This document shows, one piece after another, positions 13,829-48,749 of a stretch of 64,000 bases of DNA. Made by a program: the position numbers and the translations under genes. The notes beneath the pieces are model-generated. The model saw nothing but the letters and a program-made list of their open reading frames with translations, made no database searches and was not told where the DNA came from. The stretch comes from a virus. The stretch lies in IMG/VR virus record IMGVR_UViG_3300031772_000001, positions 64,001-128,000 of that record, one strand, 5' to 3'. The stretch's first letter is position 1; every line of letters starts with the position of its first letter.

Positions 13829-13870
13829 CTTTTAAGATAATATGAATTACATGATCGGCACAGTATATTA

Positions 13871-13890
13871 TACGTTATCAAAGGCAAAAA
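13871..13890 (-). promoter_or_regulatory. candidate phage-specific promoter TTTTT-N11-CGTA(TAAT)
   Basis: one of six intergenic copies; upstream of the SSB-RuvC-RecA operon. Confidence 0.55.
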
Positions 13891-13897
13891 TCATCAG

Positions 13898-13929
13898 AAA
13901 AAAGCCCGTAGGGATCACTACGGGCTTTT
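13898..13929. terminator. bidirectional intrinsic terminator
   Basis: AAAAAA-GCCCGTAG-ggatca-CTACGGGC-TTTT. Confidence 0.85.
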
Positions 13930-13955
13930 ATTGTAAGTGCGAACAGAAGAAAATG

Positions 13956-23668: not shown

Positions 23669-23677
23669 AAAAGCTCC

Positions 23678-23980
23678 TCACGAATCATCCACACTTAGCA
23701 TAGCCTCATTGTGCCGAAGCCGCATATTAACATCATGCAAGGACATCCCCAAATCCTCCTCTTCGAGGATCTGCTCTTGATCCTGCTCATTTCTCAAAAA
23801 ATCCTGCACACCCTGCACCTGATCCGAATTCCAAATAGGGCAAACCCGAAAGTTACATTTGTCATAACCCTTCTTACACGTCACGAAGAACTTCCCCGAC
23901 ACTCCCATATACGAAAAATGCCGGTCATCACAATGGTTCTGAAAAACGTGAAAGGGAACTACCTTTTCTGAAACACTCAT
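23678..23980 (-). CDS. hypothetical protein (start re-called at MSVSEKV)
   Basis: track extension would cross a terminator and the DUF932 gene. Confidence 0.55.
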   Translation of the reverse strand: MSVSEKVVPFHVFQNHCDDRHFSYMGVSGKFFVTCKKGYDKCNFRVCPIWNSDQVQGVQDFLRNEQDQEQILEEEDLGMSLHDVNMRLRHNEAMLSVDDS

Positions 23981-24065
23981 GGTATATCTGCTACTTTCTA
24001 TGTGAGCACAAGTGAGGGGTTTACAACCCCGCGTCACACACACACAAATCAAAGAACAAAACTTG

Positions 24066-24097
24066 AAAAGAAGGAGGAGGCTTTTCAGCCCCCTCCC
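24066..24097 (-). terminator. intrinsic terminator after DUF932 gene
   Basis: GGAGGGGGC-TGAAAA-GCCTCCTCC then TTCTTTT. Confidence 0.7.
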
Positions 24098-24104
24098 CAC
24101 CAAC

Positions 24105-27775: not shown

Positions 27776-28603
27776 TCAGCACTTGGAGAATGAGCACCGC
27801 CTACAGATCACACACCCCTCCTCATGCCCCAACGCAGCCCGACACTCAGGGCATAACCCCCGCTGTATCCAGTAATCCTCACCCTTGCCCTCATCACCAA
27901 CGTAGGGCACACCAGCCGTAAAAAACTTTGCTCTCTCCTTCGCCTGACTCAACCGAATAGGTTCCAACAAAGGAGATCCTACAGAAATGTCACTTATTTC
28001 AAAACTTTTCACTCCAGCAACATTGTCTTTGACCACACTCATGTCCGCTGGAAGATCCACCAGAAGATCCTCTGGCAACACATCAAACGGTTCTGATTTC
28101 TCAAAAATCTCAGACAATCTTGATTTTTCGATCCTATCCTTCGCAAGTTCTACGGTCTTACCTCGCAAATCATCTACGGATGAAAAAATCGCCCTCAACT
28201 CATCTTGATGATCCTCAAAAAACTTTTGCGCTTGTAAAGTCTTTCGTATCGCAGATGCAAGTGCCTTACTACAAGAACTATTTCCAGTTTTCTTAAACCC
28301 CTCATCACGCCCTGCACGATACCGAGCCGTAGGACATATCTCAGACTCAAGCTGATCCAAAATCTCCTCAATAGGGACATTGTTTTGTAAAGCGAGAGAG
28401 ACAAGCCGCCCCGTCATTTTTGTATTTGAAGAACACCCGCCCTTAGAAGATGACCCACAAAACACTTCGACCAGCTTCACCTTATCATGCCAATTAAACT
28501 TGATAGAGAAAAAAGATGACCCACAACCTGTCTGCTCCTTGAAAGTCAACCCGATAGTAGGATTATCCCTATGGACTCTTGCGTCTGTAAGACCGTCACC
28601 CAT
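27776..28603 (-). CDS. stand-alone TSCPD domain protein (class II RNR C-terminal/NrdJb-like)
   Basis: TGCG, EVF, GRLVSLALQ..VP.EEILDQLE.., SC.KAL, terminal CPEC...EEGCVICRRCSFSKC. Confidence 0.82.
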   Translation of the reverse strand: MGDGLTDARVHRDNPTIGLTFKEQTGCGSSFFSIKFNWHDKVKLVEVFCGSSSKGGCSSNTKMTGRLVSLALQNNVPIEEILDQLESEICPTARYRAGRDEGFKKTGNSSCSKALASAIRKTLQAQKFFEDHQDELRAIFSSVDDLRGKTVELAKDRIEKSRLSEIFEKSEPFDVLPEDLLVDLPADMSVVKDNVAGVKSFEISDISVGSPLLEPIRLSQAKERAKFFTAGVPYVGDEGKGEDYWIQRGLCPECRAALGHEEGCVICRRCSFSKC

Positions 28604-28784
28604 CTACCCTCCCTTTAAGTTCTCTATACACGACCAAAAGACTCACCATTGACATCTTATATAGATTATCCATGAGAAGTCTCACAATGTCAATAGCAAT
28701 TTCCCGTCTCTTGTCTAATGCCTTTGAAGAAAGGTCAAGAGAAGTCTCAGAGTTTTCAACAACAAAATCAGGGGAGTCGTTCAT
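28596..28784 (-). CDS. hypothetical protein
   Basis: 62-aa ORF. Confidence 0.5.
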   Translation of the reverse strand: MNDSPDFVVENSETSLDLSSKALDKRREIAIDIVRLLMDNLYKMSMVSLLVVYRELKGRVDG

Positions 28785-28817: not shown

Positions 28818-28993
28818 CGGGAAGACGGCAAGTTGGGAAATCCTAAGTACAACAACTAACAACAACCAATGAAGGTTTGTGTATGTAAGGTCAGCAACAA
28901 CAAGATAAATATAGCCCTACATTGCCACAACCATGACGTAAAGGAAATTCCCCGGCAACAAAGCAAGCCCTGTCACCCTTGCCGTCTATCCCG
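28818..28993 (-). ncRNA. candidate structured RNA with UUG-repeat loops
   Basis: 15-bp closing stem CGGGA(U)AGACGGCAAG/CUUGCCGUCUUCCCG, two nested stems, 3' U-tract. Confidence 0.7.
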
Positions 28994-29010
28994 CATTATC
29001 CCACGTACAC

Positions 29011-29292
29011 CTACTCAATCGGCTTCATCAGAGAGGCACAATCCACATCAACATCAACCATCGTCTTTGCATTGGACTCTTTGATTGCATTCTCAATCGT
29101 AAAGAGAGCGTTCTGAAGATCCGTTGTCAGCCTGTCTACCTTCTTAACATCATAGGTAGGCTCAATAATTTTCTTGTCATCCCCGTAATAAGATGTACGG
29201 GAAGTCAAAGAACCCTTCATGTTGACCAACTCAGACAACCGGCCACGAAGCTGCTTCTCCCGCACAAGCCACGAATTAACAGACGCTACCAT
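29011..29292 (-). CDS. DIP1984-like coiled-coil protein
   Basis: helical hairpin ...LRGRLSEL...YDVKKVD...IENAIKESNAKTMV. Confidence 0.6.
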   Translation of the reverse strand: MVASVNSWLVREKQLRGRLSELVNMKGSLTSRTSYYGDDKKIIEPTYDVKKVDRLTTDLQNALFTIENAIKESNAKTMVDVDVDCASLMKPIE

Positions 29293-29325
29293 AGCCCCTC
29301 CTCAGTGTAGGTGATAATCCTTGTA

Positions 29326-29853
29326 TTAGAACTGGTCAAGATCAAACCGCTCAAAAGACTTCATCCCCTTGATCTTCTTAACAAGAGCAATACTGACCTT
29401 ATTATACCAATCAATATCCTTCTGCCTTTTGGCAAAAAGTTTTCTCCTCTTATCATAATACAACCTCTTCCTCTGCATTGCATCCACATCAAGGGCATCA
29501 ATCACTTTCCTACCAGAAATAAGTCTCTCCCGTACAGCTTGCCGCCACTTAATCAGATCATCAGAAGAGTTTTCCTCTACAGCCTTCTGCTTTTTCAAAA
29601 ACTCCGTTGCTTCCTGAATATCTGACAAACACCCAAAAGAGACGTACTTGTACCTTTTCAGAAAATCCTTGGTCTGCTCTGGTGTCTCCAACCCAAGACG
29701 TTTCCCCTGAGCAAACAACTCACAAAAAACAACTGCCTTATCCTTCTTTGTAGCAACAAAATCATCAGCTATACGCTTTGCACTGTTGTCAATCTTCTTA
29801 TCCAGGATCTTATCTGGAATATTAACCAACTTCTTCATACAAAACCCTTTCAA
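29326..29853 (-). CDS. hypothetical basic protein
   Basis: 175-aa ORF. Confidence 0.6.
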   Translation of the reverse strand: MKGFCMKKLVNIPDKILDKKIDNSAKRIADDFVATKKDKAVVFCELFAQGKRLGLETPEQTKDFLKRYKYVSFGCLSDIQEATEFLKKQKAVEENSSDDLIKWRQAVRERLISGRKVIDALDVDAMQRKRLYYDKRRKLFAKRQKDIDWYNKVSIALVKKIKGMKSFERFDLDQF

Positions 29854-29854
29854 G

Positions 29855-29886
29855 AAAATAGAAGGTGTTACTTGAATAACACCCTC
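29855..29886 (-). terminator. intrinsic terminator after SPFH gene
   Basis: GAGGGTGTTA-ttcaag-TAACACCTTC-TATTTT. Confidence 0.65.
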
Positions 29887-29905
29887 ATGTTATCTGTTAA
29901 TCACA

Positions 29906-31123
29906 CTACTTCTTACCGGGAACACTCAAATCCAAAGACAGATCACGCGCCGCCTTCGCAGTCATAATCTCCATGAAGTTCGTAGCACCATTTCCACCAC
30001 CAACCGACCCACCCATCACCGTAGTCGGAACAATCTGACCTGAATATTTTGAAAAAGCCTCTGACCACATCTGCTGAACAGCCTTGTATGCTTCGAGCTT
30101 CTTCTCCAAAGCACCATCCGCTGACATAATCAACTTACGCTTTTCAGCTTCACCCTCTCCCTCCAAAATGAGCTTCTTCTTTGTAAACTCCGCTGCATCC
30201 CGCATCAAAGAAGCAACAGCCTTTTCCTTCTCAGCATCAGTTACCGCTGCTTGTTTCTCCTGCTCCTTCTGATACTTCACCTTCATCACAGCAGCAAGAC
30301 CTTCAGCTTCCGCAGTCAACTTATCCTGATTCGCACGGATAGCGTTCTGCTTCGCTACCTCCGTCTGCAATGTCTGATCCCTCTGCTTCTTAATCATATC
30401 ATCCACTGCATTATCAAACTTCGGTACGTCAATCTGACACTGCGTTACTCGACACCCCAACTGCTCCAAAACTGTAGGATTTCTTAGTGGTTTATTCGTA
30501 CTGTCAAGCACAATCTCAGTCATTCGTACACGCTCGGAATCACCTACAGCCCTATGAATCCACTTATCAACAGAACGTGTCTGATAAGTACCATACATCA
30601 ACTGATCCTCAATCTCACTCTGCAAAACAGCAAGAGTAGTATAAGCCTCTCGTGCTGAATGAAGATTCGCTGAAAGTTTAATTGCATTCGCACCTACAGG
30701 CACAATGCCGTTACTCACAAGATGCTCAAACCCTCCGGCAAACTGACTTTTAATTGCCTTCATCTGTTCAGAATTTGACGGAAGAGAAACACGAAGTTGA
30801 GCACGGATCAAAGCACGAGTACCATCATTGAAAATAACAGGAACTTCATCAGCCTCAAAACTCTTGTGTCCCGGTGCCTGTCCAAAAACTACTGTCACTA
30901 CCTGACGGTACACATCCACATGACCAAGAAATTTCCCATACGGCCCTGCCGTTGTCTTTACATGAAGCGCACCACCAAGATCCTGCACAATCACAAACTC
31001 ACCGGCCTTATTGAACCCCACAATGTTAAGAGCAACAACCAAAGCAATCAACAAAGCACCACCAAGACCAATAAGAGACAAAATGGACTTGAGAGGCACA
31101 ACAGACGGATCATTCTTTGGCAT
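29906..31123 (-). CDS. SPFH/Band-7 membrane protein
   Basis: N-terminal TM, SPFH core, AE-rich coiled coil (AEAEG, EGEGEAE), ARDLSLDL end. Confidence 0.85.
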   Translation of the reverse strand: MPKNDPSVVPLKSILSLIGLGGALLIALVVALNIVGFNKAGEFVIVQDLGGALHVKTTAGPYGKFLGHVDVYRQVVTVVFGQAPGHKSFEADEVPVIFNDGTRALIRAQLRVSLPSNSEQMKAIKSQFAGGFEHLVSNGIVPVGANAIKLSANLHSAREAYTTLAVLQSEIEDQLMYGTYQTRSVDKWIHRAVGDSERVRMTEIVLDSTNKPLRNPTVLEQLGCRVTQCQIDVPKFDNAVDDMIKKQRDQTLQTEVAKQNAIRANQDKLTAEAEGLAAVMKVKYQKEQEKQAAVTDAEKEKAVASLMRDAAEFTKKKLILEGEGEAEKRKLIMSADGALEKKLEAYKAVQQMWSEAFSKYSGQIVPTTVMGGSVGGGNGATNFMEIMTAKAARDLSLDLSVPGKK

Positions 31124-31154
31124 ACCAGAATCTCCTTAAAAAAATTGTGAAATA

Positions 31155-31373
31155 TCACTGTCTCAGAAAAGAATCAACCTTCTTAGAAGCCTTGTCTGCT
31201 TTCTTCATATCGACCTTAGAAACCGTATCTGCCAAAGAAACATCCTCCTCTATTGCAGCTTTCTTAAAAAGAACTGCAATAAAAGGAACCCTTGACAAAA
31301 CCAACTTCCAAGACACAAAAAGAAAAGCAACCAAAATCAAAACAACAAGAAGAAACTCCATCAACATACGCAT
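31155..31373 (-). CDS. small membrane protein
   Basis: single TM, upstream of SPFH gene. Confidence 0.6.
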   Translation of the reverse strand: MRMLMEFLLVVLILVAFLFVSWKLVLSRVPFIAVLFKKAAIEEDVSLADTVSKVDMKKADKASKKVDSFLRQ

Positions 31374-31412
31374 ACAGTCCTCCTATTTTGGATAATTCAT
31401 ACATCCTCCTTA

Positions 31413-31640
31413 TCAAACATCAACATCCTTGAGAACAGCAGATACCAGCTTCCTAATACCATCTGATTTGTTATGATACACCTGCCCCCGCTTTATCTTA
31501 GACTTTACTTTCTTTTCTAAAGAAGGTTGATAATACTCATAATCATAAACACCTTCACCTTCCTCAGTTGCCCAACCCGTATTCTGTCCGGTAGCACATG
31601 CCACAAGACTACCATTAACACGAATCTCAACTGTAAACAT
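31413..31640 (-). CDS. hypothetical protein
   Basis: 75-aa ORF. Confidence 0.6.
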   Translation of the reverse strand: MFTVEIRVNGSLVACATGQNTGWATEEGEGVYDYEYYQPSLEKKVKSKIKRGQVYHNKSDGIRKLVSAVLKDVDV

Positions 31641-31652
31641 CAGACCGTTCCT

Positions 31653-32042
31653 TCATACGCCTTCTGGTTTTTTACACACTACCCTATCCCGAAAGAAAGG
31701 CTCATCACAATCCTCAAGACGAGCAAGGTTTGGTACTTCAATTTTGAACTTCTTACACATAGGAATACGGATATTTTCATACTGATCACTAACCACAAGA
31801 TCAAGAAACTCACACCCCCGGCACGTCCCATCCTCTACCTTGAAAAAAGAAAACTTCCGAGCCACATTCTTAGCGAAGTACGAACCCACGGAAGGAGCAC
31901 CCAGACACTCGATAAACACGTTCTCCGGCACGTCATGGTACTCGTACAAAGAACCATTCGTAAACGCGGCATGGAGTACCTGCTTACTTGCAATGTATCC
32001 CAAAGAACTAACATTAGAAGATTTAACTGGAATCAACTTCAT
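31653..32042 (-). CDS. KTSC domain protein with Cys-rich tail
   Basis: PVKSSNVSSLGY...F.NGSLYEYHDVP...APSVGSYF. Confidence 0.88.
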   Translation of the reverse strand: MKLIPVKSSNVSSLGYIASKQVLHAAFTNGSLYEYHDVPENVFIECLGAPSVGSYFAKNVARKFSFFKVEDGTCRGCEFLDLVVSDQYENIRIPMCKKFKIEVPNLARLEDCDEPFFRDRVVCKKPEGV

Positions 32043-32065
32043 AATCCTACCTCCCTATAAAACAA

Positions 32066-32085
32066 TACGAATATTTCACAAAAAA
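32066..32085 (-). promoter_or_regulatory. candidate phage-specific promoter TTTTT-N11-CGTA(TTGT)
   Basis: motif copy upstream of the KTSC-SPFH operon. Confidence 0.5.
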
Positions 32086-32091
32086 GAAAAG

Positions 32092-32130
32092 AAAAAGTGA
32101 GGGGCAGAGGGTCATTCCCTCCACCCCTTT
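32092..32130 (-). terminator. intrinsic terminator
   Basis: AGGGGTGGAGGG-aatga-CCCTCTGCCCCT then T-rich run. Confidence 0.8.
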
Positions 32131-32131
32131 C

Positions 32132-32326
32132 TCAGCTACCCGACGATAGACTCCATGCACGGTATCCTCGGAAAAGAGAACAGTCTACCATAATCTGCCG
32201 TTACACAGGGGCTTTTTTAGGTACAGAGCATAACGCTCCCTGTACTTTGTTAGCCCGAAGCCGTCCAAAGATGTAAAGCTCCTACGTGAACGATCTCAAT
32301 ATTCAATGAAGTAGCATAAATCCTCC
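32132..32326 (-). ncRNA. candidate structured RNA beginning with RBS + 4-codon ORF
   Basis: GGAGGA-TTT-ATG CTA CTT CAT TGA; internal hairpins with G-U pairs. Confidence 0.5.
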
Positions 32327-32337
32327 AAAATCAAAAA

Positions 32338-32500
32338 AGAAACAAGATAACAGGGTTCTGCACGTTTACTCCCTACATTATCGGAAGCTGGTTTGCACTT
32401 TGCAGACAAGAAAGGGTTCCCTCAAAAAGTGCTGAAAGTCATCCCGAAAGATGGCAGTCAACAATGTTCCCACCTTTGCCACACCCTATTACTTGTTTCT
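32338..32500 (-). ncRNA. candidate small RNA with ~18-bp closing stem
   Basis: AGAAACAAG-UAAUAGGGU / ACCCUGUUAUCUUGUUUCU + U-tract; internal UUCG hairpin. Confidence 0.6.
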
Positions 32501-32504
32501 CTTG

Positions 32505-33026
32505 TTATACGATTTCAACGTACTCACTCATCAGGTTTATTGCCTCGTGATACCCGTCACATCTTGGCAACCTCTCGTAAAACTCGTCTGCCCTATCACC
32601 AAGACCAGCCCGATTGAGAGTCTTACCCACCTTCCCGGCAAGAACAAACACATTACCATCACCCTCAAGCAGCTTACACTCAGGCTTCAAAACCTCTACC
32701 TTCGGAGACTCCTCAGTCACTTGTTTTTGAAAATACTGAAGAGACTCGGAAGGTATCAACTCCCGATTATTCCGAAAATAATCATCATCCCAAGAAAAAC
32801 CACCCTGAAGATGCATTGGATGTATGGCGAGCTTCGGAATATCCTTGTCATCAAACTCAACAAGAACATCACTTCGTCCACCTTCACCACCCTTTCCGGG
32901 CATAGTATTAAACTGGTGAATGATCTTCGGAGAAGTAAAACCCAACTCAACAAAACCGCCGTAAAGCCCCTTCTTGTCCTCATCCGACTCAACAAGCAGA
33001 CCAATCATCACCGCTCTCGTTGACAT
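32505..33026 (-). CDS. hypothetical protein
   Basis: 173 aa; C-terminal DGNVFVLAGKV...L..AGL...YVEI module. Confidence 0.65.
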   Translation of the reverse strand: MSTRAVMIGLLVESDEDKKGLYGGFVELGFTSPKIIHQFNTMPGKGGEGGRSDVLVEFDDKDIPKLAIHPMHLQGGFSWDDDYFRNNRELIPSESLQYFQKQVTEESPKVEVLKPECKLLEGDGNVFVLAGKVGKTLNRAGLGDRADEFYERLPRCDGYHEAINLMSEYVEIV

Positions 33027-33054
33027 ACAACATCCTTTTCTTAAAAGTTAAAAA

Positions 33055-33215
33055 GAAAGGTTGACAACACCGCCGAGCGAAGCGAAGCCCTTGCAGGGGC
33101 CAAGGATTTATCAGTTGGAAATCTGCAACTTTCCCACTGTTTTAGCCTTGTGAAAAATTTGCTCATCACCCACATGCCATTTACGGTCAGAGGATCTGTA
33201 AGCTGTCAACCTCTC
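33055..33215 (-). ncRNA. candidate small RNA, 12-bp closing stem
   Basis: GAGAGGUUGACA/UGUCAACCUUUC + UUUU. Confidence 0.6.
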
Positions 33216-33226
33216 AAAGAACAAAA

Positions 33227-33348
33227 TGGCAGTAGACGTTAGCCTGATCGTCAACAAAAGACTTATGCTTCAGTTACATTGCTGTAACCAAGCCCTGTAC
33301 TCCACAACCATCCTTCTCAAATCAAGCCTTTGCCGTTGTCTACTGCCA
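33227..33348 (-). ncRNA. candidate small RNA, 11-bp closing stem
   Basis: UGGCAGUAGAC/GUCUACUGCCA + UUUU; GCAA tetraloop hairpin. Confidence 0.62.
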
Positions 33349-33361
33349 AAAACTTCTGTAA

Positions 33362-33452
33362 AATGGTGTGGAAGGCAACCTGCCCGATACGGTTGTTGTC
33401 TAAGAACCGCCGTCGCTTGATCGCATCCCTTAGACGGAATTTCCACACCATT
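33362..33452 (-). ncRNA. candidate small RNA, three-way junction
   Basis: AAUGGUGUGGAA/UUCCACACCAUU, GUCUAAG/CUUAGAC, CAACC/GGUUG. Confidence 0.62.
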
Positions 33453-33477
33453 CTATAAAAGTCTTCAACAAAAATCT

Positions 33478-34156: not shown

Positions 34157-34185
34157 AATATACCACAAACCAGAAGCAATGTCAA
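34157..34185 (-). promoter_or_regulatory. sigma70-type early promoter TTGACA-N17-TATATT
   Basis: 17-bp spacer, TG extension, purine-rich UTR. Confidence 0.8.
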
Positions 34186-34455: not shown

Positions 34456-34575
34456 TACCTCCCTTATTTTTTCTTCTCTTTCCCGTCTCTTTCCCGTCTC
34501 TCCCCTGTCTCTCTTACACCTTTAATATACACCTTATTTGGATGCTTGTCAATAGAAATCTTCAAAAACTTTTGA
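34456..34575 (-). repeat. 120-bp promoter/UTR/RBS cassette, copy 2 (TTGACA-N17-TATATT at 34552-34524)
   Basis: near-identical to 27560-27679. Confidence 0.92.
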
Positions 34576-35764: not shown

Positions 35765-36075
35765 CAGACACCCCTTGTTTCTGGTTCAATTCCAAACACA
35801 GTCCTTACATACTCAACACCATAATCCTTTGTAGTCTCAAACTGCATAATAAGACCACCCTTTTCCCGTATACCACCAAAGTAAACCTTCGGGTTTGAAT
35901 AATTTGTCAAAAACTGGACAACATCAGTATCAAACCCTTCCCTGCTGTAAACAATAATCCTATCCACATTCACAGGAAAACTCATCTGACCACCTCTAAT
36001 CTTTGAAGACCTGCCCGAATACCCTGAGTTGTAAAGAAGCCATGCACATAACAAGCATCGGGTATCATATAGCAC
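35764..36075 (-). CDS. hypothetical protein (true start likely MSFPVNV)
   Basis: GAGGTGG before internal ATG. Confidence 0.5.
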   Translation of the reverse strand: MLYDTRCLLCAWLLYNSGYSGRSSKIRGGQMSFPVNVDRIIVYSREGFDTDVVQFLTNYSNPKVYFGGIREKGGLIMQFETTKDYGVEYVRTVFGIEPETRGV

Positions 36076-47553: not shown

Positions 47554-47572
47554 TACGAAAGAACATAAAAAA
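47554..47572 (-). promoter_or_regulatory. candidate phage-specific promoter T-tract...CGTA(TTAT)
   Basis: motif copy at the structural/non-structural boundary. Confidence 0.5.
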
Positions 47573-47576
47573 TACC

Positions 47577-48749
47577 TTAAATAATAGGATACTCAACACA
47601 CAAAGGGGAAATGTTTATTCCATCTACTCCTGTACCGGTAGGCCAACCTGAAAAAGACAATACCCCTGCCTTCAACACTGCAAATCCTAAATTTCCCGAT
47701 GAATCAATTTCCATACTTGCTGGTAAATTAGCTCCCGGAATACCACCACCAACCTCCCCCACTATAGAAAATCGGGCACGATTACTTGCAAGTGGTCTAA
47801 ACCCTACTGGTATAATAGCAGAAGGTAAAGATAATGTTCCCGATCCATCAACACTTCCAACTATGTTAGAAATTTCTAACCTAACTACTGTATTTGGATT
47901 TATACCCGGATAAAATATCTTCTTTCCATTAACAGAGCAAGTAACAGAATAGAGAAGTCCTGTAACAAGAACAGAAGCATTATAAAACTCACCTATTGTA
48001 CTTGGACACACATTCAAAGCATCCTTAACAGTCCTCCCCACAACAGTAGAATCATTCATCACCTCATCGGAGTGCTTATCCCGACTTTCAATATATGGAA
48101 GAACATCATACCCACCAACAACAAAGCTACAATTTCCAGCTTCAAAAAGTGTAAGTAATCCACCAGTTAGTTTATATGGTGTAAATCCTCCACAAGAAAT
48201 ATAAATTACCAACTCTCCAAAATTAACATCATTAGGTAAAAGTGAGGCAGTTACCCACAATCTATGTGATCTACCATCACCGATATGATTGTAGCTGCCC
48301 CTTACATCTGTAAACTCCGTCAAAACCCCACCAGAAATCTTCCTCTTGAATATTCCTATCTTAACATTAGGTAGACTTGTAAGAACATCACATGAAAAAG
48401 TAACCACTTGACCAACACAAAGATCCTTTGGAATTTTCTGCCATACAGAATGACTTTTAACAGCAAAAGAAGGATCTAAAATATTCCCAATAACTGCCTT
48501 AATACCCCCATAAAAAGAAGAAGTATCTACAGTAAATACCTCAGCAGAAGATATTGGTAATCCAGCACCGGGATTTACTAAATATGAAAAATTTGAGTCA
48601 ACATGCCATTTATCTGCAAATTCATCCCCACTATTAATAATAACTCTAGGTAACGTAGAAGATACAGACAAAAACTGTGGGTTAAAACAATGATTAATAC
48701 AATTCTTCAACAAAAGAGAAAACCCCTTAACACTTCCACCAGTATTCAT
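47577..48749 (-). CDS. tail fibre/receptor-binding protein
   Basis: beta-rich; C-terminal IPVGFRP motif typical of fibre tips; context. Confidence 0.6.
   Translation of the reverse strand: MNTGGSVKGFSLLLKNCINHCFNPQFLSVSSTLPRVIINSGDEFADKWHVDSNFSYLVNPGAGLPISSAEVFTVDTSSFYGGIKAVIGNILDPSFAVKSHSVWQKIPKDLCVGQVVTFSCDVLTSLPNVKIGIFKRKISGGVLTEFTDVRGSYNHIGDGRSHRLWVTASLLPNDVNFGELVIYISCGGFTPYKLTGGLLTLFEAGNCSFVVGGYDVLPYIESRDKHSDEVMNDSTVVGRTVKDALNVCPSTIGEFYNASVLVTGLLYSVTCSVNGKKIFYPGINPNTVVRLEISNIVGSVDGSGTLSLPSAIIPVGFRPLASNRARFSIVGEVGGGIPGANLPASMEIDSSGNLGFAVLKAGVLSFSGWPTGTGVDGINISPLCVEYPII

Follow-up and report, generated by a model that had tools for sequence, protein, structure and literature searches.

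The stretch of DNA analysed here, called the window, comprises 64,000 nucleotides and corresponds to bases 64001-128000 of the complete 167,660-bp virus record IMGVR_UViG_3300031772_000001, which has direct terminal repeats and represents a 168-kb uncultivated phage. The subject of this work is an island of six non-coding elements in the window, labelled R1-R6, five of which are closed by long helices and one of which, R2, is probably a new small RNA with a covarying relative in another phage. All coordinates are window positions unless genome positions are stated. Almost all genes of the phage are carried by the minus strand, on which G is in strong excess over C, and the elements occupy three non-coding gaps on this strand: 33477-33027 with R1-R3, 32504-32043 with R4, R5, and a canonical terminator, and 29010-28785 with R6. 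Mixed TAA, TAG, and TGA stops occur in every sense frame of all three gaps, and the small open reading frames within them matched no Pfam or PHROG family on either strand; recoded or hidden genes were rejected on this basis. An earlier examination of this stretch from its letters alone, referred to below as the sequence-only reading, had delimited the same six non-coding elements and had seen no sequence similarity among them; both points were confirmed for the minus (sense) strand, except that a few 8-10-mers are common to R2 and R6. Each element is unique in sequence and is not repeated. The description of the remaining genome as wall-to-wall coding was overstated, in that about 8% of it lacks a sense open reading frame of at least 60 amino acids and similar elements are present outside the window.

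The five elements R1, R2, R3, R4, and R6 are each closed by a helix of 11-18 bp, which is almost purely Watson-Crick and includes at most two G-U pairs. R1 (33362-33452, minus strand, as are all six) forms a 91-nt three-way junction on a stem of 12 bp, or of 15 bp with one G-U pair over 33359-33455, and is followed by UUUUA. R2 (33227-33348) is a 122-nt rod-like RNA consisting of helices P1-P5, in which the 11-bp P1 is followed by UUUUGUUCUUU. R3 (33055-33215; 161 nt) has a 14-bp stem with two G-U pairs followed by UUUUUAAC, R4 (32338-32500; 163 nt) an 18-bp stem with one bulge followed by UUUUUUGAUUUUGG, and R6 (28818-28993; 176 nt) a 15-bp stem with one bulge followed by AUUUUUGUUG. The arm-arm duplex energies of the five elements lie between -17.6 and -25.3 kcal/mol (R1, -17.6; R3, -20.6; R4, -22.4; R6, -25.3), and the closure probabilities between 0.94 and 0.99 (R1, 0.94; R3, 0.99; R4, 0.97), with a value of 0.53 for the outer 9 bp of R6. 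At least five T residues are found in the eight bases after the stem in R2, R3, R4, and R6, compared to only 8.5% of the long-range sense-strand helices genome-wide. The five terminal stems with 3′ U-tracts that had been noticed from the letters were therefore borne out, with UUUUA in the case of R1.

Helices of this quality are concentrated in the island. When the 167,660-bp genome was scanned under strict criteria (at most one G-U pair and a score of at least 26), 32 long-range helices were obtained, of which four fall within the 1.14 kb of the island, or five when R3, which has two G-U pairs, is included. The number expected there is about 0.2, an enrichment of roughly 20-fold. The whole elements also fold more strongly than dinucleotide-shuffled controls on the sense strand, with z-scores of -4.71 for R1, -4.1 (-4.1 to -4.3) for R2, -3.29 for R3, -3.65 for R4, and -4.5 for R6, and the folding of the plus strand is weaker for all five. 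R5 (32132-32326) is non-coding and not significantly structured (z-score of -0.74); its closure is a weak 7 bp, and a canonical terminator at 32128-32100 comes next. Accordingly, of the six structured RNA candidates originally proposed, five (R1-R4 and R6, z-scores of -3.3 to -4.7) stand against the shuffled controls, whereas R5 is not supported as a structured RNA.

Comparative evidence is available for R2. A covariance model built from the single R2 sequence matches positions 86541-86673 (minus strand) of a second phage, G001 (IMGVR_UViG_3300036774_000066), over its full length and on the sense strand with 39.9 bits and an E value of about 1e-7. G001, which was reached via its PolA protein (73% identical) and read whole, is the closest related phage compared, with a length of 156.6 kb and 93% completeness. 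The match is the only non-self match of the model in the 327 kb of both genomes, and none was obtained in 1.19 Mb of other phage loci. In the model-fitted alignment of the two sequences, 14 of the 40 pairs show compensatory changes on both sides, and 94.7% of the cells are paired, compared to 36-47% in slid-partner controls. The conserved core includes CGGC, GAUGnUnGUGGAGUnCAnG, and UGAAGCnnnAGUCUnUUGUUGA (in R2, also GUGGAGUnCAnG), while the two outer helices are almost completely changed, with compensation. The G001 site is likewise the only non-self match of a sequence-only nhmmer search with R2 (E value of 0.064), MAFFT aligns the identical core between the two copies, and independent minimum-energy folds of both yield the same five-helix rod. 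The G001 copy is intercistronic and ends in CCCCUCCCC and CUUUUUCC, so that the arrangement of a stem plus U-tract is kept. The block that contains it is specific to G001 and is bordered by the DUF932 and ligase orthologs; the copy is thus non-syntenic with R2, and its neighbors are unrelated genes. On the basis of this covarying relative, R2 is probably a real new small RNA, and the alignment shows an interior that is apparently under selection itself, a property that a bare terminator would not require. It is the only non-coding RNA found to be common to the phage and G001, which has no tRNA or tmRNA gene.

No further credible member of the R2 family emerged from the collections searched. 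Neither R2 nor the G001 copy has an Rfam match at the gathering threshold or at E values up to 10, and a model built from the two sequences detected no more copies in G000, G001, or any fetched locus. A motif scan of IMG/VR returned only G001 and nine loci that the model rejected; the corresponding scan of prokaryote genomes returned 17 matches, which is about the chance expectation by estimate, and a weak match in Kurthia (20 bits, many non-canonical pairs) was judged to be due to chance. R4 and R6 were considered as further members and were rejected by the model in spite of the 10-mers that they share with R2.

For the other elements, no relative was found. A single-sequence covariance model of R1 finds no homologue in the window or G001, and R1 has no Rfam match. 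R3, R4, R5, and R6 have no counterpart by blastn or nhmmer in G001, in the contig L081 (2.3 kb), in 80 viral loci bearing SPFH genes, or in the phage's own genome, and comparison of the gaps with the same sequences by blastn, nhmmer, and tblastx revealed no homologue or pseudogene remnant except that of R2. GenBank phages gave no DNA or protein match. Across the island, Rfam reported nothing at the gathering threshold or at E values up to 10, including Y RNA, YrlA, riboswitches, and leaders. Thus, the Rfam comparison suggested at the outset yields no match for any element, and the support for R2 as an RNA comes from covariance with G001. The idea of structured RNA elements is reasonable as a sense-strand, RNA-level reading and R2 has a covarying homologue with 14 compensatory pairs, but the other five have none. 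Separately, R1 (33404-33422) shares an exact 15-mer, AAGCGACGGCGGTTC, with a stem-closed element at genome 48229-48489 (at 48366-48380), and an overlapping 15-mer, GATCAAGCGACGGCG, with a coding region at genome 137114-137128; it is unlikely that the two matches were made by chance.

The position of the elements relative to promoters and terminators provides information on how they could be transcribed. A strong early promoter at 34157-34185 (minus strand; TTGACA-N17-TATATT with TG, 11 of 12 consensus matches) lies upstream of R1, and is one of seven of its type in the genome; the type occurs four times in G001. No sense-strand promoter-like site was found by the promoter scan inside the gaps 33477-33027 and 32504-32043; of the two signals of an independent small-RNA gene, a terminator-like end is present. 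A weak TTTTTG-N13-TAGAAT before R1 would, as read from the sequence, start inside the 5′ arm of R1, and the sequence upstream of R6, read by eye, contains no convincing promoter site. Between the two RNA clusters lies an orphan gene for a 173-amino acid protein (32505-33026, minus strand), the C-terminal part of which is matched by PHROG 1933. Its start codon is located 29 nt beyond the U-tract of R3, leaving no room for a promoter. Because no promoter-like site separates the elements and this gene follows R3 so closely, they are most simply regarded as parts of the early transcript from 34185, which probably covers three small genes, R1-R3, the 173-amino acid gene, and R4-R5, an extent that we infer from these signals. 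A canonical intrinsic terminator at 32100-32128 (minus strand), with a 12-bp stem, a 5-nt loop, and a T-run, ends this upstream early unit. A second one is located at 29886-29861, and a consensus terminator scan of the island picks up only these two.

The closing helices resemble intrinsic terminators in that a stable helix containing G+C is followed by a U-tract on the transcribed strand at gene ends. They differ in their loops, which measure about 67-145 nt compared to 3-8 nt and fall outside the short-loop criterion, in the tandem arrangement of three of them before a gene, and in the conserved interior of R2. We estimate a probability of about 0.5 that the elements are accessory intercistronic RNA modules in a hyperplastic early region, in which the closing helix doubles as a leaky intrinsic terminator. 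R1-R4 and R6 would be transcribed on the sense strand within the early transcript, and each emerging 3′ arm would pair with its 5′ arm to form the 11-18 bp helix seated directly on the U-tract, so that the closing helix could serve as the hairpin of an intrinsic terminator. Termination would probably be partial owing to the large loop, and such leakiness would explain how the downstream genes are still reached. In this manner, the modules would attenuate and partition transcription from the strong promoter at 34185, and would define the 3′ end on a stable stem-closed RNA of 90-180 nt, which may be released as a discrete molecule and persist as a small RNA derived from a 3′ untranslated region. 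The closing helices, the U-tracts, the enrichment, the sense-strand bias, and the homology and covariation of R2 are observed, whereas termination, read-through, release as discrete RNAs, and any function in trans are inferred.

A related possibility is that the elements are protein- or ligand-responsive attenuators similar to riboswitches, in which a factor bound to the interior stabilizes or prevents closure of the outer helix and thereby sets read-through. The helix sits directly on the U-tract, both R3 and the G001 copy of R2 are followed by a gene start at a distance of 15-30 nt, the R2 family has kept its internal-loop core, and the tandem arrangement recalls that of tandem attenuators. 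However, no riboswitch or leader in Rfam is matched, R4 and R5 precede a full terminator rather than a gene, the two R2-family copies have unrelated genes after them, and no alternative anti-terminator pairing is evident, all of which makes regulation of this type improbable.

The gene content of the stretch that holds the island is wholly unlike that of the closest relative, while the flanks are conserved. Gene order is shared with G001 from the SNF2 helicase, past PolA, as far as a Cpn10-like gene; synteny resumes at the KTSC-domain gene, a 175-amino acid gene, and a TSCPD gene; entirely different genes are found in the two phages between the Cpn10-like and KTSC genes. The gene for an SPFH-like protein and two small genes upstream of it are absent from G001, where KTSC and the 175-amino acid gene are adjacent. 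The terminator at 32100-32128 is conserved in position and sequence in G001, just before KTSC, and the terminator-promoter module upstream of KTSC is conserved as a whole (L082), with CGTATTAT in G001 in place of CGTATTGT. Despite this conserved module, no RNA elements adjoin the KTSC ortholog of G001. At a place analogous to that of R6, G001 carries an unrelated 72-nt stem-closed element with a U-tract (98286-98357). Comparison with G001 therefore supplies a homologue for R2, albeit a non-syntenic one, and no counterpart for R1 or R3-R6.

In both phages, the region is flanked on either side by recurring early promoters of the form TTGACW-N17-TATATT, which are preceded by a conserved box. In the window, they occur on the minus strand at 34552, 34185, 27656, 25203, and 23190 and look similar to the PeSL type, and about 45 nt upstream of those at 34552, 27656, and 25203 form a block that is conserved among the three (ATCAATnACTTACA ... 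AAAAGTTTTTGAAGATTTCTA). Hyperplastic regions with PeSL-type promoter-terminator cassettes have been described for T4-type phages (PMC2839356, PMC4122927). The likeness to these consists of a variable early region bounded by repeated strong sigma-70-type promoters and stem-loops, with a gene content that differs between close relatives (PMC2839356, PMC4122927). In contrast, PeSL is a short repeated motif composed of a small stem-loop and an early promoter, whereas R1-R6 are unique, 90-176 nt long, and without an adjoining promoter.

Several results weigh against RNA modules with terminating helices. When the closing arms are removed, the z-scores of the interiors are -1.78 for R1, -2.31 for R2, -0.39 for R3, +0.31 for R4, and -1.57 for R6, compared to an average of -0.34 for neighboring coding windows; the signal of R1, R3, R4, and R6 thus comes mostly from the closing helix, and their interiors are not clearly above shuffles. 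In partial transcripts, the 5′ arms do not stay unpaired, so that a kinetic design with free 5′ arms was not seen. Large loops are expected to make poor terminators, the stem bases of R1 and R4 are A/U-rich, and arms that are almost purely Watson-Crick would also fit an origin at the DNA level. In addition, R1, R3, R4, R5, and R6 lack a homologue wherever one was searched for, in searches that reached very few relatives, and signs of selection on the RNA are limited to R2. The R2 family itself has two members only, with pair counts taken from a model-fitted alignment, and the case from its covariation is accordingly good but thin.

These points lead to a simpler view, in which the elements are plain terminators or insulators with unusually large loops, and the interiors are neutral filler from the rapid turnover of a hyperplastic region. 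The significant association with U-tracts would be expected of such elements, as would the insignificant structure of the R1, R3, R4, and R6 interiors and their lack of detectable homologues. The comparable junctions of G001 are occupied by small canonical terminators or by a stem-closed element of shorter length, and PeSL-type cassettes of terminator and promoter mark regions of this sort in T4-type phages (PMC2839356, PMC4122927). Similar stem-closed elements with U-tracts are also present in other intergenic gaps of the minus strand outside the window, at genome 36862-36975, 47552-47650, and 48229-48489. The first of these has a stem (AGCCCGTAG/CTACGGGCT plus a T-run) identical to that of a small canonical terminator in the window gap 13829-13955, and the shared stem suggests that terminator hairpins may gain or lose large loops. 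Nevertheless, neutral filler would not account for an R2 core that is conserved while the outer helices have wholly changed with compensation, three terminators in tandem would directly precede a gene for which no promoter is visible, and loops of about 67-145 nt are far beyond the usual terminator geometry. Taken together, this view appears unlikely, although it merits serious consideration. If the elements are only large-loop terminators, they would still bear on the partitioning of early transcription in this phage group.

The near-perfect Watson-Crick arms deserve attention for another reason: on a G/U-rich strand, G-U pairs would be cheap, and their scarcity could indicate inverted repeats at the DNA level that have no RNA function and are scars left behind where the hyperplastic region recombined or had its cassettes shuffled. 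The location of the elements in variable cargo is compatible with this, and an attC-like cassette array exists elsewhere in the genome, at 40.7-43.0 kb, whose sites carry CCCAACA ... ACGTTGGG boxes at the hairpin base. R1-R6 were compared with these attC-like sites and the assignment was rejected, as their stems share no box and the CAAC/GTTG boxes are absent. Ends of transposons or miniature inverted-repeat transposable elements were ruled out as well, as there are no repeats and no target-site duplications. Passive scars would also not be expected to show the compensatory change of R2 or a U-tract that is one-sided and confined to the sense strand. We consider such a DNA-level origin to have little probability.

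Three proteins of the island had been put forward as cognate partners of the RNAs. The KTSC-domain gene (31653-32042, minus strand) is the only one of the three that was confirmed directly (PF13619, E value of 8.2e-17). The SPFH-like gene (29906-31123, minus strand; PHROG 11908) is recognizable from homologues that carry PF01145 or are named HflC, while the protein itself scores only an E value of 2.2 against Band_7. The DIP1984-like assignment was not reproduced, in that the 93-amino acid protein concerned matches neither DIP1984 nor any other family in Pfam or NCBIfam. The KTSC gene may have its own promoter, with a putative -10-like box CGTATTGT at 32062-32069 (minus strand) after TTTTTTG, which would belong to a second class. 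Sites of this class (TTTTTG-N10-12-CGTATWRT) are intergenic on the minus strand at 47557, 44907, 32069, and 13874, with one copy upstream of the tmRNA gene and one upstream of KTSC; their spacing is reminiscent of T4 middle promoters, which have a box near -30.

The sequence-only reading combined these proteins with the RNAs into a small-RNA arsenal, with KTSC, SPFH, and DIP1984-like proteins as cognate partners or with repair of the RtcB/Ro type. A KTSC gene is indeed present, and the stem-closed, U-tailed layout of the elements recalls that of Y RNAs. The elements and the neighboring genes are, however, not linked: the relative keeps KTSC without RNAs next to it, and the R2 homologue occurs in a phage that has no SPFH gene and no 173-amino acid gene. 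A search with the 173-amino acid protein found only itself; the only relative of its gene (54% identical) was found on L081, where it is flanked directly by genes with no non-coding gaps. The 80 viral loci with SPFH homologues (at most 45% identical) have no synteny in common and contain no homologue of the RNAs. Protein searches also show an SPFH homologue at 71% identity, a PolA homologue at 65%, and identical proteins on other contigs.

The complete genome likewise lacks the expected repair machinery. No match was found to TROVE/Ro (PF05731), for which control genomes gave matches, or to RtcB (PF01139), for which controls matched in 10 genomes, and reverse transcriptase and RNase III are absent, which rules out a retron and a phage RNase III as a partner. 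A search for Rnl1 gave no match, but its control also matched nowhere, and the result is uninformative. Like Y RNA and YrlA, which act with Ro (Rsr) and RtcB, the elements pair their 5′ and 3′ ends in a long stem with a U-rich tail after it; they differ in having no tRNA-like module, no YrlA or Y RNA match in Rfam, and no Ro or RtcB encoded in the same genome. The arsenal with its cognate proteins is therefore largely refuted by the lack of co-occurrence and is highly improbable, a partnership with RtcB/Ro repair is unsupported, and the finding has no bearing on RNA repair.

The T4 RNAs rnaC and rnaD provide another point of comparison, as they are small structured non-coding RNAs in tandem in a large virulent phage (T4 rnaC has a z-score of -4.6). 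However, both are part of a tRNA cluster, rnaC carries a T arm similar to that of a tRNA, and a terminal stem with a U-tract is found in neither. In the island, ARAGORN detected no tRNA-like gene and no T-arm motif was seen when its sequence was read by eye; R1-R6 are also far from the tRNA genes of the phage, of which tRNA-Met lies in the window together with a tmRNA gene, and two tRNA-Leu genes outside it. The likeness was rejected on account of the different architecture.

Large virulent phages encode small RNAs. To our knowledge, a role has been established for almost none of these, and comparative evidence exists for few. R2 and its G001 homologue constitute a small new RNA family of this general kind, namely, phage structured RNAs without an assigned role, and they offer a concrete family that can be tested. 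Its layout is unusual, in that the closing helix of a rod of about 125 nt would serve as the terminator hairpin, and the family changes its place among variable regions without being tied to a protein gene. If the other four stem-closed elements are of the same kind, hyperplastic phage regions could be reservoirs of RNA cargo and small protein genes. A more far-reaching version would be a battery of at least five unrelated and undescribed phage small RNAs. Each would represent a new family that, like R2, travels from one hyperplastic region to another as mobile cargo; early transcripts would give rise to these RNAs by means of a closing helix that is also the terminator, and as decoys or sponges they would target host or defence factors in trans. 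Such a battery is a tentative and rather doubtful extension.

Some minor observations concern the sequence around the island. Downstream of R6, a 62-amino acid open reading frame at 28596-28784 has no Shine-Dalgarno sequence and no homologue, and it includes a promoter-like site, TTGACA-N17-GATAAT, at 28693-28665, which could serve the TSCPD gene; for these reasons, the non-coding stretch around R6 may extend to about 28604. The apparent 436-nt gap at 23669-24104 holds an unannotated conserved open reading frame, since a 123-amino acid protein of G001 matches genome 87714-87980 (window 23714-23980) with 54% identity; the non-coding part there is limited to the terminator immediately downstream of the DUF932 gene. 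The nominally intergenic stretch 35773-35957 is conserved, with 69.5% nucleotide identity to G001, and probably represents either a small gene that was overlooked or a conserved element. Finally, at genome 33677-33788, tRNA-Leu(CAA) is preceded by a 17-bp sequence with complementarity to the D and anticodon region of this tRNA, which it could sequester in the precursor.

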